A DNA stretch of 64,000 nt from Myxococcota bacterium (GTDB taxonomy: Bacteria > Myxococcota_A > UBA9160 > UBA4427), in assembly GCA_028278345.1 (NCBI GenBank), contig JANQEL010000277.1:11889-75888 (forward strand), read 5' to 3'. The position numbers and the translations under genes were made by a program. This document shows, one piece after another, positions 5,106-52,311 of this stretch (its first letter is position 1; every line of letters begins with the position of its first letter). The notes beneath the pieces are model-generated. The model was not told where the DNA came from. It did no database searches and was given only the letters and a program-made list of their open reading frames with translations.

Positions 5106-6008
5106 ATGAAGATGCGGAAGCCGTCGATCGGATGGCCTGATGCAGCCAATGCGGGGATAGTGCTGGTACTTGGGTCTCTGTCCTTCGCGACTGCACCCGA
5201 ATGGTGCAAAGCGCTAGACGCGTGCCTGCCCACTTCGGCGGCTGTCTATCACACCGGCCTACTCGTTACTGCATGCACTGCCGCCGTCCCAATTACGCTC
5301 AGGGCCCTGTGGTATTCCGCATGGTGGACTTGGTCCAGGTTCGCATCGACTGTGACGGTTCAGATATGGAATCCATCCCCGAAAGACGGCGAAGAGAAGA
5401 CCAGATTGGTTCTTTTTCCAGGCGACACGAGGGCAGTCGTGATCGAGGCAAGGTGGACATCGCCACCGCATCCCTGGCTCCTAAAGAGGCTCATGCGCAA
5501 CACATTGTTGTACCTAAAGGTGGGATCGTGGAACTCGCTTCACCTAGCGTCGGCGCGGGGACCAAGAAGGATTACCGCGGATCGTCGCACAATCGTATCT
5601 GGCGAGATTGCCACACTTCCGCACGTAGTCAGACTTCCCGGAGTTATGCGACTTGGATGGGAGATGGGCCACAGCGCATTCTCCGGCATCTTCAGAATCA
5701 TGCAGGGAGGCTCGCCGATACCGGGCAACCCGAAACAGCTTGAGGCAAAGGCTAGGTTTTGCCTCAAGCATATCTATCGGTTAAGTCGGCAAGATGATCG
5801 TGTATTTCATCGAATCCCGACGCCGAAACATCTCATTCTTCGATTCTTGACCGACGTCGAAATGGTCGACATCGATGGAAATGGTGACAAACTCACTGTT
5901 ATCACTCAGATCCAATCGAGATCCGATGATGCACCATCGCGACCCGCAGAGGTGGGTGCCGAGCAAGCTACTGGCACGCCCCAAGACATGCCTGAAGCGC
6001 CTCACTGA
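5106..6008 (+). CDS. hypothetical membrane protein (two N-terminal TM helices plus a roughly 200-aa soluble domain)
   Basis: ORF track 5106..6008. Hydrophobic segments GIVLVLGSLSFATA and TGLLVTACTAAVPITL. Starts 7 nt after the preceding ORF. Low GC. Confidence 0.5.
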   Translation: MKMRKPSIGWPDAANAGIVLVLGSLSFATAPEWCKALDACLPTSAAVYHTGLLVTACTAAVPITLRALWYSAWWTWSRFASTVTVQIWNPSPKDGEEKTRLVLFPGDTRAVVIEARWTSPPHPWLLKRLMRNTLLYLKVGSWNSLHLASARGPRRITADRRTIVSGEIATLPHVVRLPGVMRLGWEMGHSAFSGIFRIMQGGSPIPGNPKQLEAKARFCLKHIYRLSRQDDRVFHRIPTPKHLILRFLTDVEMVDIDGNGDKLTVITQIQSRSDDAPSRPAEVGAEQATGTPQDMPEAPH

Positions 6009-40714: not shown

Positions 40715-41464
40715 ATGAACGAGGGCGATCAGTCGAAGAACGGCGAGAGCAGCTCGCCCAAGATCAGCAACGCCCCTACGCCGGCAATGAGTGAGAGCCA
40801 GCCGGCCCGAAGGCCGGACCACCAGGAGTCCATACCTACCTCCGATAACCGGTGGGGACAGGCCGCTGAGCGCATTGGAGCGTTCTTCCGGGACAACGGC
40901 GTGACGCTCCTCGTGCCAAGTATCGCAGCCATCGGAGCGATCATCGCGGCTGTGATACTGAGCCAGGGATCGCAGCCGGCCCCCGGCATTCACATCGAGC
41001 GCTACTACGCAACGCCGGAGGTCGCACCGGACCCAACCGAACACTCGCCTTCTAACTCTGACACGAGTCCAGAGACAGAAAAGTTCGTCGGCTACGAACC
41101 CCACTCCCAGGGCTGGGTCTACTTCAGCACTCTGCGCATCCCGAAAGGCACAAGACGTCTCGTTCGCGAGACGAGCTGCCAAGGCGACGACTGTGTCCAG
41201 ATCGTCCTGCAGCATGTTGAGAAACGCAACGAAGATAACCAGCTCGAGATGGTGGTCTTCGACCCTCCGGCTGTTTCCGGCCTGACTCTTCCGATGCCCT
41301 TTCGCACTGGCTGCAGCTATCGAATCGGAACGCCAAACTCGAAGTTCTACATCCACATCGCGCGAGACGTAGAGTTCGAGCCACTCGTACTCGTCTGGGC
41401 TTCCGGGCCAGATCCAGACTATGAAGGTGTCGACAACAGTGGCGCGATCTGCCCGCCGGCGTAG
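40715..41464 (+). CDS. single-pass membrane protein, opposite-strand moron
   Basis: ORF track 40715..41464. TM segment VTLLVPSIAAIGAIIAAVILS. Lower GC. Transcribed against the flanking early genes. Confidence 0.5.
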   Translation: MNEGDQSKNGESSSPKISNAPTPAMSESQPARRPDHQESIPTSDNRWGQAAERIGAFFRDNGVTLLVPSIAAIGAIIAAVILSQGSQPAPGIHIERYYATPEVAPDPTEHSPSNSDTSPETEKFVGYEPHSQGWVYFSTLRIPKGTRRLVRETSCQGDDCVQIVLQHVEKRNEDNQLEMVVFDPPAVSGLTLPMPFRTGCSYRIGTPNSKFYIHIARDVEFEPLVLVWASGPDPDYEGVDNSGAICPPA

Positions 41465-41473
41465 CACCCCCAC

Positions 41474-41830
41474 CTACCCCACCTCCCGCGCTCGCTCATC
41501 GGCGGGCCTCACGGTGCGCATCCGTCGACGACTCGACCGCTTCCGGCACTCGGCCGCGAACAGATTCAGTTCGTCGAGCCAGGAGACCTCGCCGTCACAG
41601 GCCTCGATCGCGTCGAAGACCAGGTCGAACGGAAGGCGGTGCGGATCGTCGGGATCGGCCCACTGCGACACCCTGCCCTGCGCGCGGCGTCGGGTCGCGA
41701 ACCCTTGGTGCTCGTAGGCGAGCTCGGTGAAGCGCTTGCGTCGCGATGTTCCTGGCTCCCCGAGGTCGGCGAAGACCATCTCGCTGGCACGCCGGGCCGC
41801 ACGTGGTGGGCGATCCGCTTGATTCTGCAT
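41474..41830 (-). CDS. hypothetical early protein
   Basis: ATG at 41830 (MQNQADRPP...). The upstream part of ORF 41474..42547 runs antisense through the lipoprotein gene. Confidence 0.45.
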   Translation of the reverse strand: MQNQADRPPRAARRASEMVFADLGEPGTSRRKRFTELAYEHQGFATRRRAQGRVSQWADPDDPHRLPFDLVFDAIEACDGEVSWLDELNLFAAECRKRSSRRRMRTVRPADERAREVG

Positions 41831-41866
41831 GGGTTTCTCCTGGGGGGTGATGCCGACCGAAGTCGG

Positions 41867-41882
41867 TGGAAACATGTTTCCA
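41867..41882. promoter_or_regulatory. perfect 16-bp palindrome, candidate operator
   Basis: TGGAAACATGTTTCCA in the divergent intergenic region between 41830 (minus) and 42017 (plus). Short inverted repeats flank it. Confidence 0.4.
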
Positions 41883-42016
41883 ACGACACGCAGAACAGTG
41901 TCGATCGGGGAGAAAATCGAGGGCGTCGAAAAAAATGACGCAACGACTCCACCGACTTCTGCGGTACGACAAATCGGAGCTGAGCGGCGGGAACGTCGGC
42001 TCAGGGGAGGCGGAAA

Positions 42017-42529
42017 GTGCGGAGAGCGGTGGCAGTGATCGTGATTGCGTTGGTTGCAGCGGGGTGTGCGGGGTCGGTTTACAACCCCCACCCTCGACTC
42101 GCCTACTACGACGAGGCTGAATACGCGCCGTACAGACTGCCGGGCTCCGGAGCGATATCCGGCGAGGTACTTGGCTCTCTCGGCCCCGCCCGAAATCGCC
42201 CGGTAGAGCTTCGGCCGGTCACGTCCCATTCGATCGAGTGGGTTCAAAGGCGAGTTCTCCGGACCGAGCTGTTGGACCCGCCCGACCCTCGAACTGTTGA
42301 GTTCGTACGACAAACCACGACGGACAGCGATGGACGCTTCGTGTTCACCGACCTGCCCGCCGGCGACTACTTCATCACCTCGAAGACGGCGAGCCTCCAG
42401 GGATTCCTTGCACTCGGCCGCGCGAACGTACAAAGCGGCGAACACAAGTCTGATGTCAGCGTCGAGCGGTGTCAGCATGAGATGCTTGTTCCACCTACCG
42501 CGCGCTGCCGCGCACTCCTGCTCGAGTAG
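42017..42529 (+). CDS. lipoprotein with a carboxypeptidase-regulatory-like beta-sandwich motif, opposite-strand moron
   Basis: Lipobox VIALVAAGCAG. The DSDGRFVFTDLPAGDYFI motif is typical of CarboxypepD_reg-like domains. Confidence 0.6.
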   Translation: MRRAVAVIVIALVAAGCAGSVYNPHPRLAYYDEAEYAPYRLPGSGAISGEVLGSLGPARNRPVELRPVTSHSIEWVQRRVLRTELLDPPDPRTVEFVRQTTTDSDGRFVFTDLPAGDYFITSKTASLQGFLALGRANVQSGEHKSDVSVERCQHEMLVPPTARCRALLLE

Positions 42530-42534
42530 TGCGA

Positions 42535-42861
42535 TCACGCCGCGCACTTCCCCTGCTCGCGGGCAAGGTCACGGATGCGTTCGCCCTTAAAGACGAGCGC
42601 GAAGTACGGAGCCCCAACGATTGGCCCAACGCGGCGACAGGTTTCTTTGTCCCACCCCCGAGAATCGACGTTCAGGAATCCCCACAGCTGCTGAGGAGGC
42701 ATCCGAACATCCGCATTCTCGGCGATGTACCGGGCCGCCTCGCTCAACGAGGCGAAGTCCGAAACGAAGTGGTCGACTAGATCCCGTCCCGTCCGAGCAT
42801 CTTTCAGCCATCGATTCAGGTCACTCATTTCAACGTGAAAGTGATAAACGAAAAAGCCCAC
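42535..42861 (-). CDS. hypothetical protein, possible Cro-like regulator; start may be the internal MSDLNRW
   Basis: First minus-strand gene, divergent from the XRE gene. Segment SLSEAARYIAENADVRMPPQQLWGFLN is HTH-like. Confidence 0.4.
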   Translation of the reverse strand: MGFFVYHFHVEMSDLNRWLKDARTGRDLVDHFVSDFASLSEAARYIAENADVRMPPQQLWGFLNVDSRGWDKETCRRVGPIVGAPYFALVFKGERIRDLAREQGKCAA

Positions 42862-42933
42862 GTCAAGGCTCTATTTCAATTTCCTGTTGATTGCGTGTCT
42901 GCGGGCGGCAAGTAGCTTCGTGAATTCATCATC

Positions 42934-43353
42934 TTGAGGTTGAAATTGCCTGCGAAGTCTCGCGGCAGGGGAGCGGAAAGGGACCGGGACGGCCTGCCTG
43001 TCCCGGATGCCCCGCTCTCGCCTAACCAGCGTGCGATCCGAAACCTGGTCATCACTGGATTCGGCGGCAGCGTCCATAAGCTGGCATCTGCGGTCGGCAC
43101 CGAGCCACAGACGGTCTACAAGTGGATCAACGGACTCAGCGAACCGAACCGCGTCAACCTCGCAGCAGTCGCAGAGGCAGCAGGCGTGGGGGTTGAAGAC
43201 CTCTGGGTCCCAGATCCGGACGCGATCTACTTCCGCGGCGCCGTGATTCGCGGCACCGGCAAGACGCGGGAGTTGTATGAGGAACTCAGCCGCCATGCGG
43301 AGGCCGTCGTGAAACACCACTCCCCTTCACTCGCGAAGAAGCTGGGGCTCTGA
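42934..43353 (+). CDS. XRE/Cro-CI family HTH regulator, repressor candidate; non-ATG start uncertain
   Basis: HKLASAVGTEPQTVYKWINGLSEPNRVNLAAVAEAAGV is a classic XRE HTH. The frame has no in-frame ATG. Confidence 0.6.
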   Translation: MRLKLPAKSRGRGAERDRDGLPVPDAPLSPNQRAIRNLVITGFGGSVHKLASAVGTEPQTVYKWINGLSEPNRVNLAAVAEAAGVGVEDLWVPDPDAIYFRGAVIRGTGKTRELYEELSRHAEAVVKHHSPSLAKKLGL

Positions 43354-43354
43354 G

Positions 43355-44002
43355 GTGAGCGCGAGACTAGACCCGCACGGTCAGCCGGTCGCGCGTTTCA
43401 ATCGCTCGCGCCTGACGGATCGCGCGATCGATGAGCTCGTAGGACTCTGCAAGGGTGTCCTAGCGGATGGCGTTGTCGACGAGAACGAGGCGAAATTCCT
43501 CGCAAACTGGATGCAGGCGAACCGAGAGGCCCGCGATCGATGGCCGGCGAACGTTCTCTTCCCTCGGATACGGGAGATGCTCGAGGACGACGTTCTCGAC
43601 GCAGATGAGCAAGCCGAACTCCTCGACTTGATCATCGATGCGACGGGCGGGGGTCTAGCGCCAACCCCCGAGGACGGCAGCATGTCGACAGCGCTGCCCG
43701 TCTGCGCACCTGCTCCGGAGATCGAATTCGAGGGATTTACCTTCTGTATGACCGGGAAGTTCGCGAGTGGGACCCGGAAGGAGTGCCAGGCGCAGGTTGT
43801 CGCTCTCGGCGGCTCGTGCAAGGGCGCCCCAAGCAGAGCTGTCGACTACCTGGTCATCGGAACGATCGGCAGCACGGACTGGATTCACTCGACCCATGGG
43901 CGAAAGATTGAAAGAGCCGTGCAACTGCGCGAAGAAGGCTCCGGCATCCACATTGTTGCGGAAGAACACTGGTTTGCGGCGGTCAAGGGCGCCGCGCAAT
44001 AG
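43355..44002 (+). CDS. TerB-like N-terminal domain / C-terminal BRCT domain protein
   Basis: N-terminus ...LADGVVDENEAKFLANWM... is TerB-like. C-terminus FEGFTFCMTGKF...R.E....V..LGG.....S...DYLVIG... matches a LigA-type BRCT. Confidence 0.65.
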   Translation: MSARLDPHGQPVARFNRSRLTDRAIDELVGLCKGVLADGVVDENEAKFLANWMQANREARDRWPANVLFPRIREMLEDDVLDADEQAELLDLIIDATGGGLAPTPEDGSMSTALPVCAPAPEIEFEGFTFCMTGKFASGTRKECQAQVVALGGSCKGAPSRAVDYLVIGTIGSTDWIHSTHGRKIERAVQLREEGSGIHIVAEEHWFAAVKGAAQ

Positions 44003-44150
44003 ACCAGCAAGTCACTCCTACAACGTGCGGTGTCGTCGAGCGTTTTTCTGAACACGCAAACCGCACAAGGTCTCTAGCGTTCTGTCGTGTGACCGGGGCT
44101 GTCACGGTCTCCAGCCAAAACGGGATCCCCCCCCAACAGAGGATCCCCCC

Positions 44151-44708
44151 ATGACCCTATTGCACTGCTCTTACTCGATCGTCTCCGTCGTCGACCAGAT
44201 CCACCGGCGGCTGGGCTACTCCGGCGGAAAGCTCGAGCTTGCTCAGATGTTCGACGAGTTCCCGGGCTTTTCGCTCGCGCCGGTTTCGAAGAACGCGCTC
44301 CCAAGACACGCTCTCGCGGCGATGGTCCGACGAGGTGGCATTGCAACGATTGCTTTCGATCCAGAGCAAGATCGTCGACGCCTACGGTTTTCTATCGCTC
44401 ACGAAATCGGCCACGCGCTCCTGCACGCGGGGCACCTCCGAGAGTTTCGGATTCCACAGCGCTCTCGGAATCCAGAATCGGTGCGCGAGCGACAGGCGAA
44501 CTACTTCGCGGGAGAACTCCTTGCGCCGCCGTGGGCCGTAGAACTGGCACTCGACTCGATGATCGGCACGCTGGAATTCCCCGCCTGCCCGTCGTTCCCA
44601 CTCCTGCGTCAGCTCGCCGATCACTTTGATGTTTCTGTTGCGGCGATCCGGTACCAGTACGCCGGCTTCGCATCACTCCGGCAAGGACCCGCCGGGCTGC
44701 GACCATAG
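44151..44708 (+). CDS. ImmA/IrrE-family (COG2856) zinc metallopeptidase
   Basis: HEXXH motif in FSIAHEIGHALLH, with a downstream E..ANYFAGELL. Confidence 0.8.
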   Translation: MTLLHCSYSIVSVVDQIHRRLGYSGGKLELAQMFDEFPGFSLAPVSKNALPRHALAAMVRRGGIATIAFDPEQDRRRLRFSIAHEIGHALLHAGHLREFRIPQRSRNPESVRERQANYFAGELLAPPWAVELALDSMIGTLEFPACPSFPLLRQLADHFDVSVAAIRYQYAGFASLRQGPAGLRP

Positions 44709-47425: not shown

Positions 47426-47595
47426 AGGCCGGCGCAAAGCCGTACGTGCTCGGCGGCCGGTGCCGCAAGGGGCACCTGTTGACCGAGAAGGTTCTCGGGT
47501 TCATCCGCGGTCGAAAGCGGACGCGGCGCTACTGCAGAAGGTGCGCGTCGGTTCGCGATCGCCGGTATCGGAAGCAGTCTGGGGAGAGAAACTGA
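47422..47595 (+). CDS. small zinc-finger protein (57 aa; below the ORF-track size cutoff)
   Basis: The GTG forms a GTGA overlap with the upstream stop, and its TGA overlaps the next ATG. Own translation gives VKAGAKPYVLGGRCRKGH...RRYCRRCASVRDRRYRK. Confidence 0.4.
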   Translation: MKAGAKPYVLGGRCRKGHLLTEKVLGFIRGRKRTRRYCRRCASVRDRRYRKQSGERN

Positions 47596-48266
47596 TGAAA
47601 TACGTAGACGTCTATACGCAGGAAGACATGGAGCGCGTACTCCGCGACGGCGATCGGCCGGAGCTACGTGGAAGCGGGGAGTTTGTCGTTCGGGACTCGG
47701 CCACCGTCCACGCCTGGGACTCGGCCACCGTCCACGCCTGGGACTCGGCCACCGTCCACGCCGGGGGCTCGGCCACCGTCCACGCCGGGGGCTCGGCCAC
47801 CGTCCACGCCGGGAAATTCGTCGCAACGCAAAAGATGAGCCGGCTCGCGAATGTCACGGGCGGTCACATCATCGAGATCGAGCCCGCGACATCGCCTGGC
47901 GATTGGGCCGAGATCCATCTTGCAGCACCGCACGAAGATGGCGTGCTGGTGCTCTACAAGGCGGTAAGTGACGACTACCGCAGTGGCTACGACTTCGAAT
48001 ACAAGCCCGGGTCGATGCCGGTCGCGCCCGATTGGGATGGCGGCGATGCCGAGTGCGGTGGTGGTCTGCACTTCTGTGCGAGCCCGATGGAGGCGATGGC
48101 GTACCACTCGGAGGCGACGCGTTTCATGGCCTGCCCGGTCGCGCTTGACGACTTGGCTGTGGTCCCGAACCCGGCATACCCGAACAAGATCAAGGCCCGT
48201 GGGTGTTGCGCGCCCATCTGGGAGGTGGACATCAATGGAAAGCGGGTCGGAGAGGGGGCGAGCTGA
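47595..48266 (+). CDS. hypothetical protein with five octapeptide repeats and a conserved-looking C-terminal domain
   Basis: ATG preceded by GGGGAGAG. Repeats are (D/G)SATVHA(W/G) x5. C-terminal LYKAV..DYRSGYDF.Y.PG...APDWD....CGGGLHF. Confidence 0.6.
   Translation: MKYVDVYTQEDMERVLRDGDRPELRGSGEFVVRDSATVHAWDSATVHAWDSATVHAGGSATVHAGGSATVHAGKFVATQKMSRLANVTGGHIIEIEPATSPGDWAEIHLAAPHEDGVLVLYKAVSDDYRSGYDFEYKPGSMPVAPDWDGGDAECGGGLHFCASPMEAMAYHSEATRFMACPVALDDLAVVPNPAYPNKIKARGCCAPIWEVDINGKRVGEGAS
47694..47813 (+). repeat. 5 x 24-nt in-frame tandem repeat
   Basis: gactcggccaccgtccacgcctgg x3, then gggggctcggccaccgtccacgcc-type units. Near-perfect copies. Confidence 0.9.
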
Positions 48267-50597: not shown

Positions 50598-50942
50598 GTG
50601 AGTGAGAATGACCTGATCGTGTGGGGAGACGAAGACGGCGACCGCTGGTTTGCCGACGGCGCGCACCTTTCGCTCGAAGAGATGGCTCGCGAGGTCGAGC
50701 GGTTTGAAGTTGAAGTGACGAGCGAGGAGGACTTCGCGGAGAGGCGGGCCGAGGTGGAGACAGGTCGCGTCACCCACCTCCTGGTCGTCGAGGACTATCG
50801 GGACGAGGAGCGTTTCGTGGTTTTCCGCAACGATTGGCGCGGGCGATGCGCGCAGCTCTTCCTTGACGCAAGACCGTTGACCGAGCTGCTCGCAGGGAGC
50901 GGGATCGACGAGGACCCGAACCAGGCGGAGCTCTTCCAGTGA
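50598..50942 (+). CDS. strongly acidic small protein
   Basis: 114 aa, very rich in Asp/Glu. Its stop overlaps the integrase start. Confidence 0.5.
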   Translation: MSENDLIVWGDEDGDRWFADGAHLSLEEMAREVERFEVEVTSEEDFAERRAEVETGRVTHLLVVEDYRDEERFVVFRNDWRGRCAQLFLDARPLTELLAGSGIDEDPNQAELFQ

Positions 50943-52144
50943 CCGCCCCCGCGAACAGCGCCGACTGGCGACCCTCCCCGTCCTTTGGGATTCTCCGCGA
51001 AATGGCGCGGACCTTCGGCTCGGTGGTCTCTCGCACTCACAAGGGCGTGACCCGGTGGGGCCTGCGCTTTCGCGTCGACGGCGACGAATACCACTCCTGG
51101 TCGGTCCCGGTCGGCGAACGTCGCATCCGCTACTCGACTCGCGACCTGGCCGAGGGAGTACTCGACGAGATCCGGAGCTCCATCCGCCACGGGATCGACC
51201 CCCTGGCCGCGATCTCGCCCTACCTGAACAACTCCCCGCTCTTCCGATTCGAGCGGTTCTGGGACGAGTGGACGACCCGGCAACGCGCACGAACCGACGC
51301 CGGGCAACTCCACCCGACGCGCGTTACCTGGAACGAGTCCTTCACGCGCCTCGGCTACCTGGACCCGATCCTCGACGTGTCGGTCTGGGATCTCGGCTAC
51401 GGCTACATGGAGACGCTGCAGACCCACCTGCTCGACACCTGCGAGCTCAGTCCGAAGAGCACCCGCCACGTGCTGTCGGACGTCCGCACCTGCCTGCGGT
51501 GGCTCGCGCGCCGGAAGGGCTTCCCCGCCGCGCCCGATATCCCGCCGACGGTAGTCCCCCGGCACATCCCGAAGATCCCGACGGTTGCCGAGCAGCGCGC
51601 TCTGCTCGACGCGATTCCGTGGGGCGACCGCGGCTACTTCCTGGCCCGCGGCCTCCTTGGCGTGCGTGACGAGGAGGCCGCACGCGCGAACCTCGAGGAC
51701 TACCGCTGGGGCGACAATGCGGCCGGCGACTCGTGGTTCATCCGTGCCAAGGGCGGCCAGAACCGCCTACTCCCGGTCCCGGGCGAACTCGCGCACTGGG
51801 TCCGCGACCACCATCGACCAGGCCCTTGCGAAGCGGGGACGCCGCTCTTCGCGAACCCGAACGCCGACCTCGAGAAGAACCCCGAAGGCCGGTGGACGCC
51901 GTCTTCACGCCGGCGGGTGATGCTGGCTGCGATGCGCGCCATCGGGAAACCGAAGGCCTGGCGGCCGAACGAAGCGCTGCGCCACTGCTTCGGCACACGC
52001 ACCGCCGAGCGACTGCTCACTGAGGGCTATGGGGAACACGATGCGATCCGCATGGTCATGTCGATCATGGGCCACACGTCGGACGTGACGTCGCGGCGAT
52101 ACGTACAACTCGCCGTCGAAGTGCTGAGGAGCGCGATCACGTGA
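50939..52144 (+). CDS. int: tyrosine site-specific integrase
   Basis: C-terminal catalytic signature ...LRHCFGT...MGHTSDVTSRRYVQL. Adjacent to the tRNA 3-prime end. Confidence 0.9.
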   Translation: MTAPANSADWRPSPSFGILREMARTFGSVVSRTHKGVTRWGLRFRVDGDEYHSWSVPVGERRIRYSTRDLAEGVLDEIRSSIRHGIDPLAAISPYLNNSPLFRFERFWDEWTTRQRARTDAGQLHPTRVTWNESFTRLGYLDPILDVSVWDLGYGYMETLQTHLLDTCELSPKSTRHVLSDVRTCLRWLARRKGFPAAPDIPPTVVPRHIPKIPTVAEQRALLDAIPWGDRGYFLARGLLGVRDEEAARANLEDYRWGDNAAGDSWFIRAKGGQNRLLPVPGELAHWVRDHHRPGPCEAGTPLFANPNADLEKNPEGRWTPSSRRRVMLAAMRAIGKPKAWRPNEALRHCFGTRTAERLLTEGYGEHDAIRMVMSIMGHTSDVTSRRYVQLAVEVLRSAIT

Positions 52145-52237: not shown

Positions 52238-52311
52238 TGGAGGCGGCGACCGGATTCGAACCGGTGATCAGGGCTTTGCAGGCCCGTGCCTTACCACTTG
52301 GCTACGCCGCC
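52238..52311 (-). tRNA. tRNA-Cys (GCA)
   Basis: The reverse complement folds as a 74-nt cloverleaf: acceptor GGCGGCG/CGCCGCC, anticodon loop CUGCAAA, T-arm GGTTCGAATCC, discriminator U73 and encoded CCA. Confidence 0.9.

Follow-up and report, generated by a model that had tools for sequence, protein, structure and literature searches.

A PHROG 3989 BRCT gene between the XRE-family and ImmA/IrrE-type protease genes of a probable Myxococcota prophage

Introduction

In the ImmR/ImmA pair of ICEBs1, the DdrO/IrrE pair of Deinococcus and the CapH/CapP pair of the cyclic oligonucleotide-based antiphage signaling system (CBASS), a gene for an XRE-family helix-turn-helix (HTH) protein lies upstream of, and on the same strand as, a gene for an M78 protease with a HEXXH motif and a downstream glutamate. 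Pairs of the ImmR/ImmA type form part of a mobile element's control region, where they diverge from a small Cro-like gene. We analyzed a DNA stretch of 64,000 nucleotides from a Myxococcota bacterium (assembly GCA_028278345.1, contig JANQEL010000277.1, positions 11,889 to 75,888 of the forward strand), hereafter the window, which carries at positions 42,535 to 44,708 a module resembling these systems in all of the above respects. However, its two partner genes are neither adjacent nor fused, as an unrelated gene of 648 bp, followed by 148 nt of spacer, splits the XRE gene from the protease gene. This intervening gene, which encodes a BRCT-domain protein of 215 amino acids (aa), is the main subject of the present study.

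The middle protein belongs to PHROG 3989, an uncharacterized family. Orf2 of Vibrio phage K139, which is also found in Kappa (as kp3), VPUSM8, 919TP and VcP032 and carries the NCBI label 'BRCT domain-containing protein', is homologous to it (31% identity over 89% of the query by tblastn). In both proteins, acidic helical units are followed by a BRCT domain with a WIHSTHGRK-type loop, and both genes lie directly behind the repressor gene in a lysogeny operon. Orf2 differs in its length of 301 aa, which includes an extra N-terminal helical unit, whereas the protein of the window is a short form. The settings differ as well: K139 has an S24-type CI repressor and then glo and int, whereas the module studied here has an XRE repressor and an M78 protease. 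Exclusion in K139 was reportedly assigned to Glo by Nesper et al. in 1999.

The XRE/ImmA pair of the window is ordinary, and the significance of the locus lies in the middle gene, which represents a large cross-phylum family repeatedly placed behind the repressors of temperate phages. What is new here is that a repressor-linked PHROG 3989 gene accompanies an XRE/ImmA repressor instead of an S24 CI. Judging from the sequence comparisons described below, we favor, with moderate confidence, the reading that the module combines an ordinary XRE/ImmA switch with a repressor-operon passenger, whose product may read 5'-phosphorylated nicks or ends and may be used for exclusion.

Composition of the module

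The three plus-strand open reading frames (ORFs) of the module are all present, and their GC content at the third (GC3, 0.69-0.75) and second (GC2, 0.47-0.49) codon positions is of the coding type. Together with the Pfam domains, this bears out the triad of XRE HTH, BRCT and COG2856 genes that had been recognized in a preliminary description of the stretch. The first gene (42934..43353) encodes a 139-aa XRE-family HTH protein, which matches Pfam HTH_3 (E 1.2e-5, residues 44-90) as well as transcriptional repressor families of PHROG. We presume that this protein is the immunity repressor and the substrate of the protease.

The gene for the 215-aa protein (43355..44002, plus strand) starts with GTG at 43355, which leaves a single base between it and the XRE stop codon ending at 43353. 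Its product matches Pfam BRCT over residues 122-179 (E 6.3e-6) and phrog_3989 over residues 21-212 (8.1e-66). The third gene (44151..44708, plus strand) encodes a 185-aa zinc metalloprotease of the ImmA/IrrE type (COG2856, Peptidase_M78; Pfam PF06114, E 9.3e-14). As read from the translation, the protease carries HEIGH at residues 84-88 and, downstream, E113 inside ERQANYFA, so that its earlier assignment as a COG2856 HEXXH metallopeptidase is confirmed by both the Pfam match and the motifs. The protease also matches the capP (2e-18) and RmrA models of PADLOC; despite the capP match, and in contrast to CapH/CapP, no CBASS genes are seen after it in the window.

Neighborhood of the BRCT gene

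Loci with relatives of the BRCT gene, 25 genomic and 80 viral, were combined with deposited phages and metagenome contigs and dereplicated at 85% identity, resulting in 62 clusters. An M78 gene is the next gene downstream in 2 of 60 dereplicated loci, namely the window and one distant relative, and at a distance of two and three genes in either direction M78 is absent from the 25 most frequent families. When whole records were searched with PF06114, only one among 34 BRCT-bearing virus records gave a match, which is below threshold and lies on the opposite strand. Conversely, no relative of the BRCT gene was found in the 44 loci that hold relatives of the window protease. Of 43 such M78-relative loci, 11 have the HTH fused to the protease and another 28 encode it directly upstream, on the same strand and within 200 nt (39/43). 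These tallies indicate that the XRE/M78 pair is normally contiguous and that the BRCT family is normally unconnected with it. On these grounds we reject a conserved XRE-BRCT-M78 system.

The neighbor family that does recur is the repressor. Among 58 dereplicated loci, 25 have a same-strand HTH or S24 repressor gene within two genes upstream of the BRCT gene, the gap often being 1-30 nt, and the repressor is the sole neighbor family that is widely shared (23 loci). Tallies of Pfam domains in the neighbors are in agreement. Most of these repressors are S24/LexA-type CI proteins, which are self-cleaving and need no ImmA. In phages Marin, PG1 and K139, the family gene follows cI, and the annotated lysogenic operon of K139 reads cI-orf2-glo-int. 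We estimate that a random phage gene would occupy that post-repressor position a few per cent of the time. The family thus travels with the repressor irrespective of whether the latter is under S24 self-cleavage or under an ImmA protease, which argues that it is tied to the repressor operon rather than to the protease. That PHROG 3989 genes usually stand directly behind a repressor gene of any type suffices as the simplest account of the position of the BRCT gene between XRE and ImmA.

These results bear on two statements of the preliminary description. It had remarked that a BRCT gene between an XRE repressor and an ImmA/IrrE protease departs from the usual pair, and the 39 of 43 loci with a fused or adjacent HTH, together with the lack of BRCT relatives in the 44 protease loci, agree with this. 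Its proposal that the BRCT protein is a partner gating the protease fares poorly, given the rarity of a downstream M78 gene, the single sub-threshold match among the virus records and a recurrent neighbor that is a repressor, usually of the S24 type. Co-occurrence of the BRCT gene with the XRE/COG2856 pair is not conserved at the family level, and it is kept in one related prophage. This prophage, on contig JANOFF010000156, retains the order Cro-like/XRE/BRCT/M78, with identities to the window of 44%, 34%, 62% and 51%, respectively, the value for the XRE protein applying from residue 19 on. The four-gene order is kept despite this divergence, which indicates that the arrangement is old within the lineage.

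Other neighbors vary. We considered whether the BRCT gene has a second conserved partner, and the only other recurrent candidate is a protein of 120 or 149 aa without a Pfam match, encoded near the BRCT gene in six dereplicated loci and with no fixed side. In L004:3571-4020, L111 and L112 it is encoded upstream of the BRCT gene, in some cases separating the latter from cI, and in L035, L040 and L042 (~5621-5997) just downstream. In Campylobacterota phages of Sulfurimonas and Sulfuricurvum (L003:3980-5037, L023, L025 and L053), the BRCT gene heads a leftward unit opposite cII, in a cI-like position, and no adjacent repressor was called in these four loci. In L003, a gene for a staphylococcal-type nuclease follows the BRCT gene directly, and in total three loci encode such a nuclease no more than three genes downstream. 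From this arrangement, the BRCT protein and the nuclease may form a sensor-effector pair. Separately, a viral contig (L058:3007-6809) shows the order CI(S24)-BRCT-small gene-UmuD-like gene-427-aa gene, the last of which is probably of the UmuC type, so that the BRCT gene stands beside a translesion-polymerase cassette.

Structure of the BRCT protein

An AlphaFold model of the 215-aa protein (mean predicted local distance difference test score (pLDDT) 86.5) consists of a helical N-terminal domain, a proline-rich linker and a BRCT domain. The best Foldseek matches of the BRCT domain (43718..44002, residues ~122-215) are LigA (E 7e-6) and the BRCT domain of RFC1 (E 3.5e-4). The LigA-type BRCT C-terminus that had been read from the sequence earlier is thus supported by both the Pfam match and the fold search. 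The likeness to LigA and RFC1 goes beyond the fold. A T-G pair in the beta1-alpha1 loop and an arginine eight residues further on (T133-G134 and R141) align to the T-G...R residues of the E. coli LigA and human RFC1 BRCT domains. According to Kobayashi and colleagues, these residues in RFC1 reportedly bind the 5'-phosphate of DNA. K184 is probably equivalent to the conserved alpha2 lysine that follows the G-S motif of LigA.

In 54 homologs, T133, G134, R141, W176, H178, G182, R183 and K184 are invariant, and most of these lie in the loop W176-I-H-S-T-H-G-R-K184. Compared with the LigA BRCT domain, this region has an eight-residue insertion, T-D-W-I-H-S-T-H, ahead of the Arg-Lys, in which all residues are nearly invariant and W176 and H178 fully so. 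A loop of this type, W-[IL]-H-S-T-[HY]-G-R-K, following the helical unit or units is a hallmark of the family in the alignments, and the window protein has it. Besides the insertion, the protein differs from LigA and RFC1 in having no catalytic, HhH or clamp-loader module, and its binding of 5'-phosphorylated DNA is a prediction. A weak match to the PADLOC model PDC-S48 (E 0.0061, 13.7 bits; residues 26-168 against positions 229-375 of 411) covers a shared helical-plus-BRCT region only.

The N-terminal domain (43355..43669, residues 1-105) is modeled as a five-helix bundle with high confidence (pLDDT 90.6) and carries two D-x6-E motifs, D38/E45 and D78/E85, all four residues of which are invariant. 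The preliminary description had called this domain TerB-like, a label that finds weak support. Among 50 homologous N-termini, 19 weakly match DUF533 (best E 5.6e-5), which we take to be a member of the Pfam TerB clan, and 13 match TerB itself (best E 0.008). However, the N-terminus of the window protein has no TerB match in Pfam, its confident model finds no significant PDB match with Foldseek, a PDB profile search makes no TerB assignment, and an hhalign comparison with a TerB alignment of host relatives returns a probability of 3%. A firm TerB assignment was therefore not reached, and judging by the weak matches of its homologs, the domain appears at best weakly similar to the TerB clan.

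Spread and fusions of PHROG 3989

Relatives of the middle protein are found by tblastn in 17 deposited phages, among them Pseudomonas phages, Stutzerimonas phage PG1, Sulfurimonas phage SNW-1, and Vibrio phage K139 with the Kappa family ('orf2'). A large protein search returned 522 matches from several phyla, the best 120 of which are 47-69% identical to the query, and a profile search of all representatives gave at least 1,227 clusters at 50% identity (E <= 1e-30). Between the window and the related prophage, the BRCT protein is 62% identical, as against 34% for the XRE protein.

Two genomes from different orders place the family gene behind ligA. In a metagenome-assembled genome (MAG) of Phycisphaeraceae (L115:5646-8633) and in an unrelated MAG (L117:154-3016), the gene starts 13 nt past the housekeeping ligA, in core contexts that include rpsR, ruvX and ruvC. 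We estimate that two such placements among ~25 genomic loci are very unlikely to arise by chance. In the two orders concerned, the family gene is sporadic, being present in 3 of 81 and 1 of 11 genomes, which rules out the adjacency as a vertically inherited housekeeping pair and implies that the family gene is not a core LigA partner.

In longer members of the family (P0136, P0183, P0156, P0239, P0223, P0148, P0147 and P0216), the whole helical-plus-BRCT module is fused to further domains. These are HhH and a second BRCT domain, corresponding to the C-terminal part of LigA; LigA domain Ia together with a DnaQ-type exonuclease; a superfamily 1 (SF1) helicase with an REase_MTES_1575 nuclease and DUF3320, in a protein of 2,042 aa; a helicase C-terminal domain; and, weakly, HIRAN. 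These fusions and the T133-G134...R141 alignment lend support to the earlier idea that the BRCT protein is a reader of DNA ends or DNA damage. The combination of a LigA/RFC1-type 5'-phosphate pocket, ligA adjacency and fusions to end-processing domains leads to a testable hypothesis, namely that PHROG 3989 proteins may be made in the lysogen and act as readers of nicks or DNA ends.

Possible functions

In our favored reading, the small Cro-like gene would face left and an ordinary ImmR/ImmA-type switch, consisting of the XRE repressor and the COG2856 zinc protease, would face right. By analogy with ICEBs1 ImmR/ImmA and DdrO/IrrE, the protease presumably cleaves the XRE repressor after DNA damage. 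The BRCT gene would be a separate passenger between the two switch genes, a PHROG 3989 member like orf2 of K139, and its product would be made in lysogens together with the repressor. This protein is predicted to be non-enzymatic, combining an acidic helical bundle with a LigA/RFC1-class BRCT domain that has a putative T-G...R...K 5'-phosphate pocket and the WIHSTHGRK loop. It may bind 5'-phosphorylated DNA at nicks, gaps or ends, or else the LigA machinery acting at such sites. Its most likely use would be interference with incoming or replicating foreign DNA, for example at unsealed cohesive-end (cos) joints, which would amount to superinfection exclusion.

The ligA adjacency, the fusions, the pairing with a staphylococcal-type nuclease and the higher conservation of the BRCT protein relative to the repressor point to a universal DNA structure, such as a nick, gap or end with a 5'-phosphate, or the LigA machinery as the target, and not to a phage-specific one. 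The rexAB genes of lambda offer a parallel in position: they, too, lie just downstream of the repressor gene and are probably co-transcribed with it, and passenger genes of this kind vary between otherwise related phages. In contrast, rexAB is unrelated to the BRCT gene in sequence and fold, and the window protein has no membrane or enzyme domain and is far better conserved across phyla than typical exclusion genes. If the family acts as an exclusion factor or as an input to induction, a common and so far unexplained gene of prophage immunity regions would be explained.

Several points weigh against this reading. The WIHSTHGRK loop is the least confident part of the AlphaFold model (pLDDT < 50), which suggests that it may become ordered only on a ligand. 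The neighbor assignments rest on our own simple gene caller and profiles together with a Pfam scan, and about half of the loci have no adjacent repressor. The conservation of the protein at 50-69% identity across phyla is unusual for exclusion proteins and would suit a housekeeping-type target equally well, and the placement behind ligA in a core genome argues against a toxic or abortive function. The gene order kept in the related prophage would also accord with a functional link within the lineage. Finally, we found no experimental or functional study of any family member in the searchable literature.

The best placed of the other explanations, which we nevertheless regard as rather unlikely, is that the BRCT protein tunes induction in general. 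By occupying 5'-phosphate ends or modulating LigA, it could shift the amount of RecA-activating DNA and so set the damage threshold for repressors of either the S24 or the XRE/ImmA type. Such a role would fit the linkage to both kinds of repressor and the frequent near-overlap with the repressor gene, as well as the ligA adjacency and the high cross-phylum conservation. It would also be in line with a preprint (doi 10.64898/2026.07.02.736140) that groups cI with BRCT genes in damage-responsive modules replacing quorum-sensing cassettes in Roseobacter phages, an annotation-based inference. However, the many loci that lack an adjacent repressor do not fit this role, and in the Campylobacterota phages the pairing with a staphylococcal-type nuclease looks more like a sensor-effector cassette.

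A further reading confines the link to this lineage, with which the gene order kept on JANOFF010000156 is compatible. Here, the BRCT protein would have been recruited as the missing input of the ImmA switch, passing the signal of 5'-phosphate nicks or ends, whether on damaged or on invading phage DNA, to the M78 protease and allowing RecA-independent cleavage of the repressor, and PHROG 3989 in general would be a new class of effector-less DNA-end sensors wired to various kinds of phage repressor. We consider this reading quite doubtful.

We think it improbable that the protein is a repair accessory of benefit to the host. In that case, it would act as a cofactor or scaffold of LigA through BRCT-BRCT pairing, as in XRCC1-Lig3, and the gene would be a lysogenic-conversion gene that improves nick sealing. 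This role would accord with the placement directly behind housekeeping ligA in two unrelated genomes, with the fusion of some members to the LigA HhH-BRCT region and domain Ia, and with XRCC1/Lig3 BRCT heterodimers among the fold matches. In contrast, even the two orders with the ligA placement have the gene only sporadically (3/81 and 1/11 genomes), and a repair accessory would have no obvious reason to track the repressor.

We place last, as very unlikely, the model that gives the switch a third component in the BRCT protein, a sensor of DNA damage, DNA ends or a phospho-signal by which the ImmA-type protease would be gated, with cleavage of the XRE protein confined to times when the sensor is engaged. 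The tight order with 1 nt between the XRE stop and the BRCT start, the four-gene order kept in a prophage with 34-62% identical proteins, pocket residues that suit 5'-phosphate DNA and the fact that, to our knowledge, the activation of ImmA-type proteases is generally unclear all speak for it, whereas the neighbor tallies (2/60 loci, 1/34 virus records below threshold, 0/44 M78-relative loci), partner repressors that are mostly self-cleaving S24 proteins in need of no protease, and the hairpin-bearing 148-nt spacer between the BRCT and M78 genes speak against it. On the sequence comparisons, we would therefore rank exclusion first among the roles of the passenger, then tuning of the damage signal, then a LigA cofactor for the host and, least likely, a gate of the M78 protease.

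Control region and prophage setting

The small divergent gene of the module (42535..42861, minus strand) encodes 108 aa and probably has its true start at ~42828 (Met12). Its product has no Pfam or PHROG match and is 44% identical over 99 aa to the product of the same-position gene of the related prophage. That counterpart scores as an HTH protein with a profile that we built, which makes the earlier designation of the gene as Cro-like plausible.

The divergent control region proper (42862..42933) contains repeats of the form ATTTCAA(C/T) / GTTGAAAT, which also reach into both flanking genes (42827-42946). Three copies, at 42827, 42873 and 42939 (inverted repeats I1 and I3), extend across the region between the Cro-like and XRE genes, and they may be operator half-sites. 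No sigma-70 consensus promoter was found in this region, and scanning the module for promoters and terminators yielded no more than expected from shuffled sequence. The spacer between the BRCT and M78 genes (44003..44150) contains a hairpin, GGGATCC(N12)GGATCCC, at 44122-44147. The hairpin stops three bases short of the M78 ATG (44151) and scores as terminator-like on the minus strand only; it might occlude the ribosome site of the M78 gene.

The module lies in a lambda-like setting. By Pfam, the window encodes a gpA-type large terminase, a lambda-family portal protein, an S49 protease, a capsid protein E and a gpJ-like tip protein, and the best explanation is a cos-type lambda-like prophage, with the stretch described here as its immunity (lysis-lysogeny) module. 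The module has replication genes on its left and genes for single-stranded DNA-binding protein (SSB) and recombination on its right: directly past the M78 gene come an ORF without assignment, the SSB gene and a gene with exonuclease-type PHROG matches, which probably functions in recombination. From two plus-strand envelope-protein genes through to the M78 gene (40715-44708), GC3 is 0.67-0.75, compared with ~0.86 in the neighboring phage genes. The lower GC3 at 40.7-44.7 kb suggests that the immunity and moron block is mosaic and was separately acquired.

An ORF of 401 aa at 50939-52144 resembles a tyrosine integrase in its C-terminal HxxR...Y motifs, and it has no Pfam match at E <= 1e-4. It adjoins a tRNA-Cys gene on the minus strand (52238-52311), which is probably the attachment site of the prophage; a search with a 14-nt seed found no direct repeat for such a site. 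The host is probably an uncultured member of the Myxococcota, and its IspH shares 72% identity with the IspH of a 'Deltaproteobacteria' MAG. Among sequencing runs, the stretch was found only in a coral-metagenome DNA run and in no RNA run. Further to the right of the module, the ORF at 47460-48266 contains an in-frame tandem array (47668-47837) in which a 24-nt unit occurs in six overlapping copies, encoding (D/G)SATVHA(W/G) repeats.

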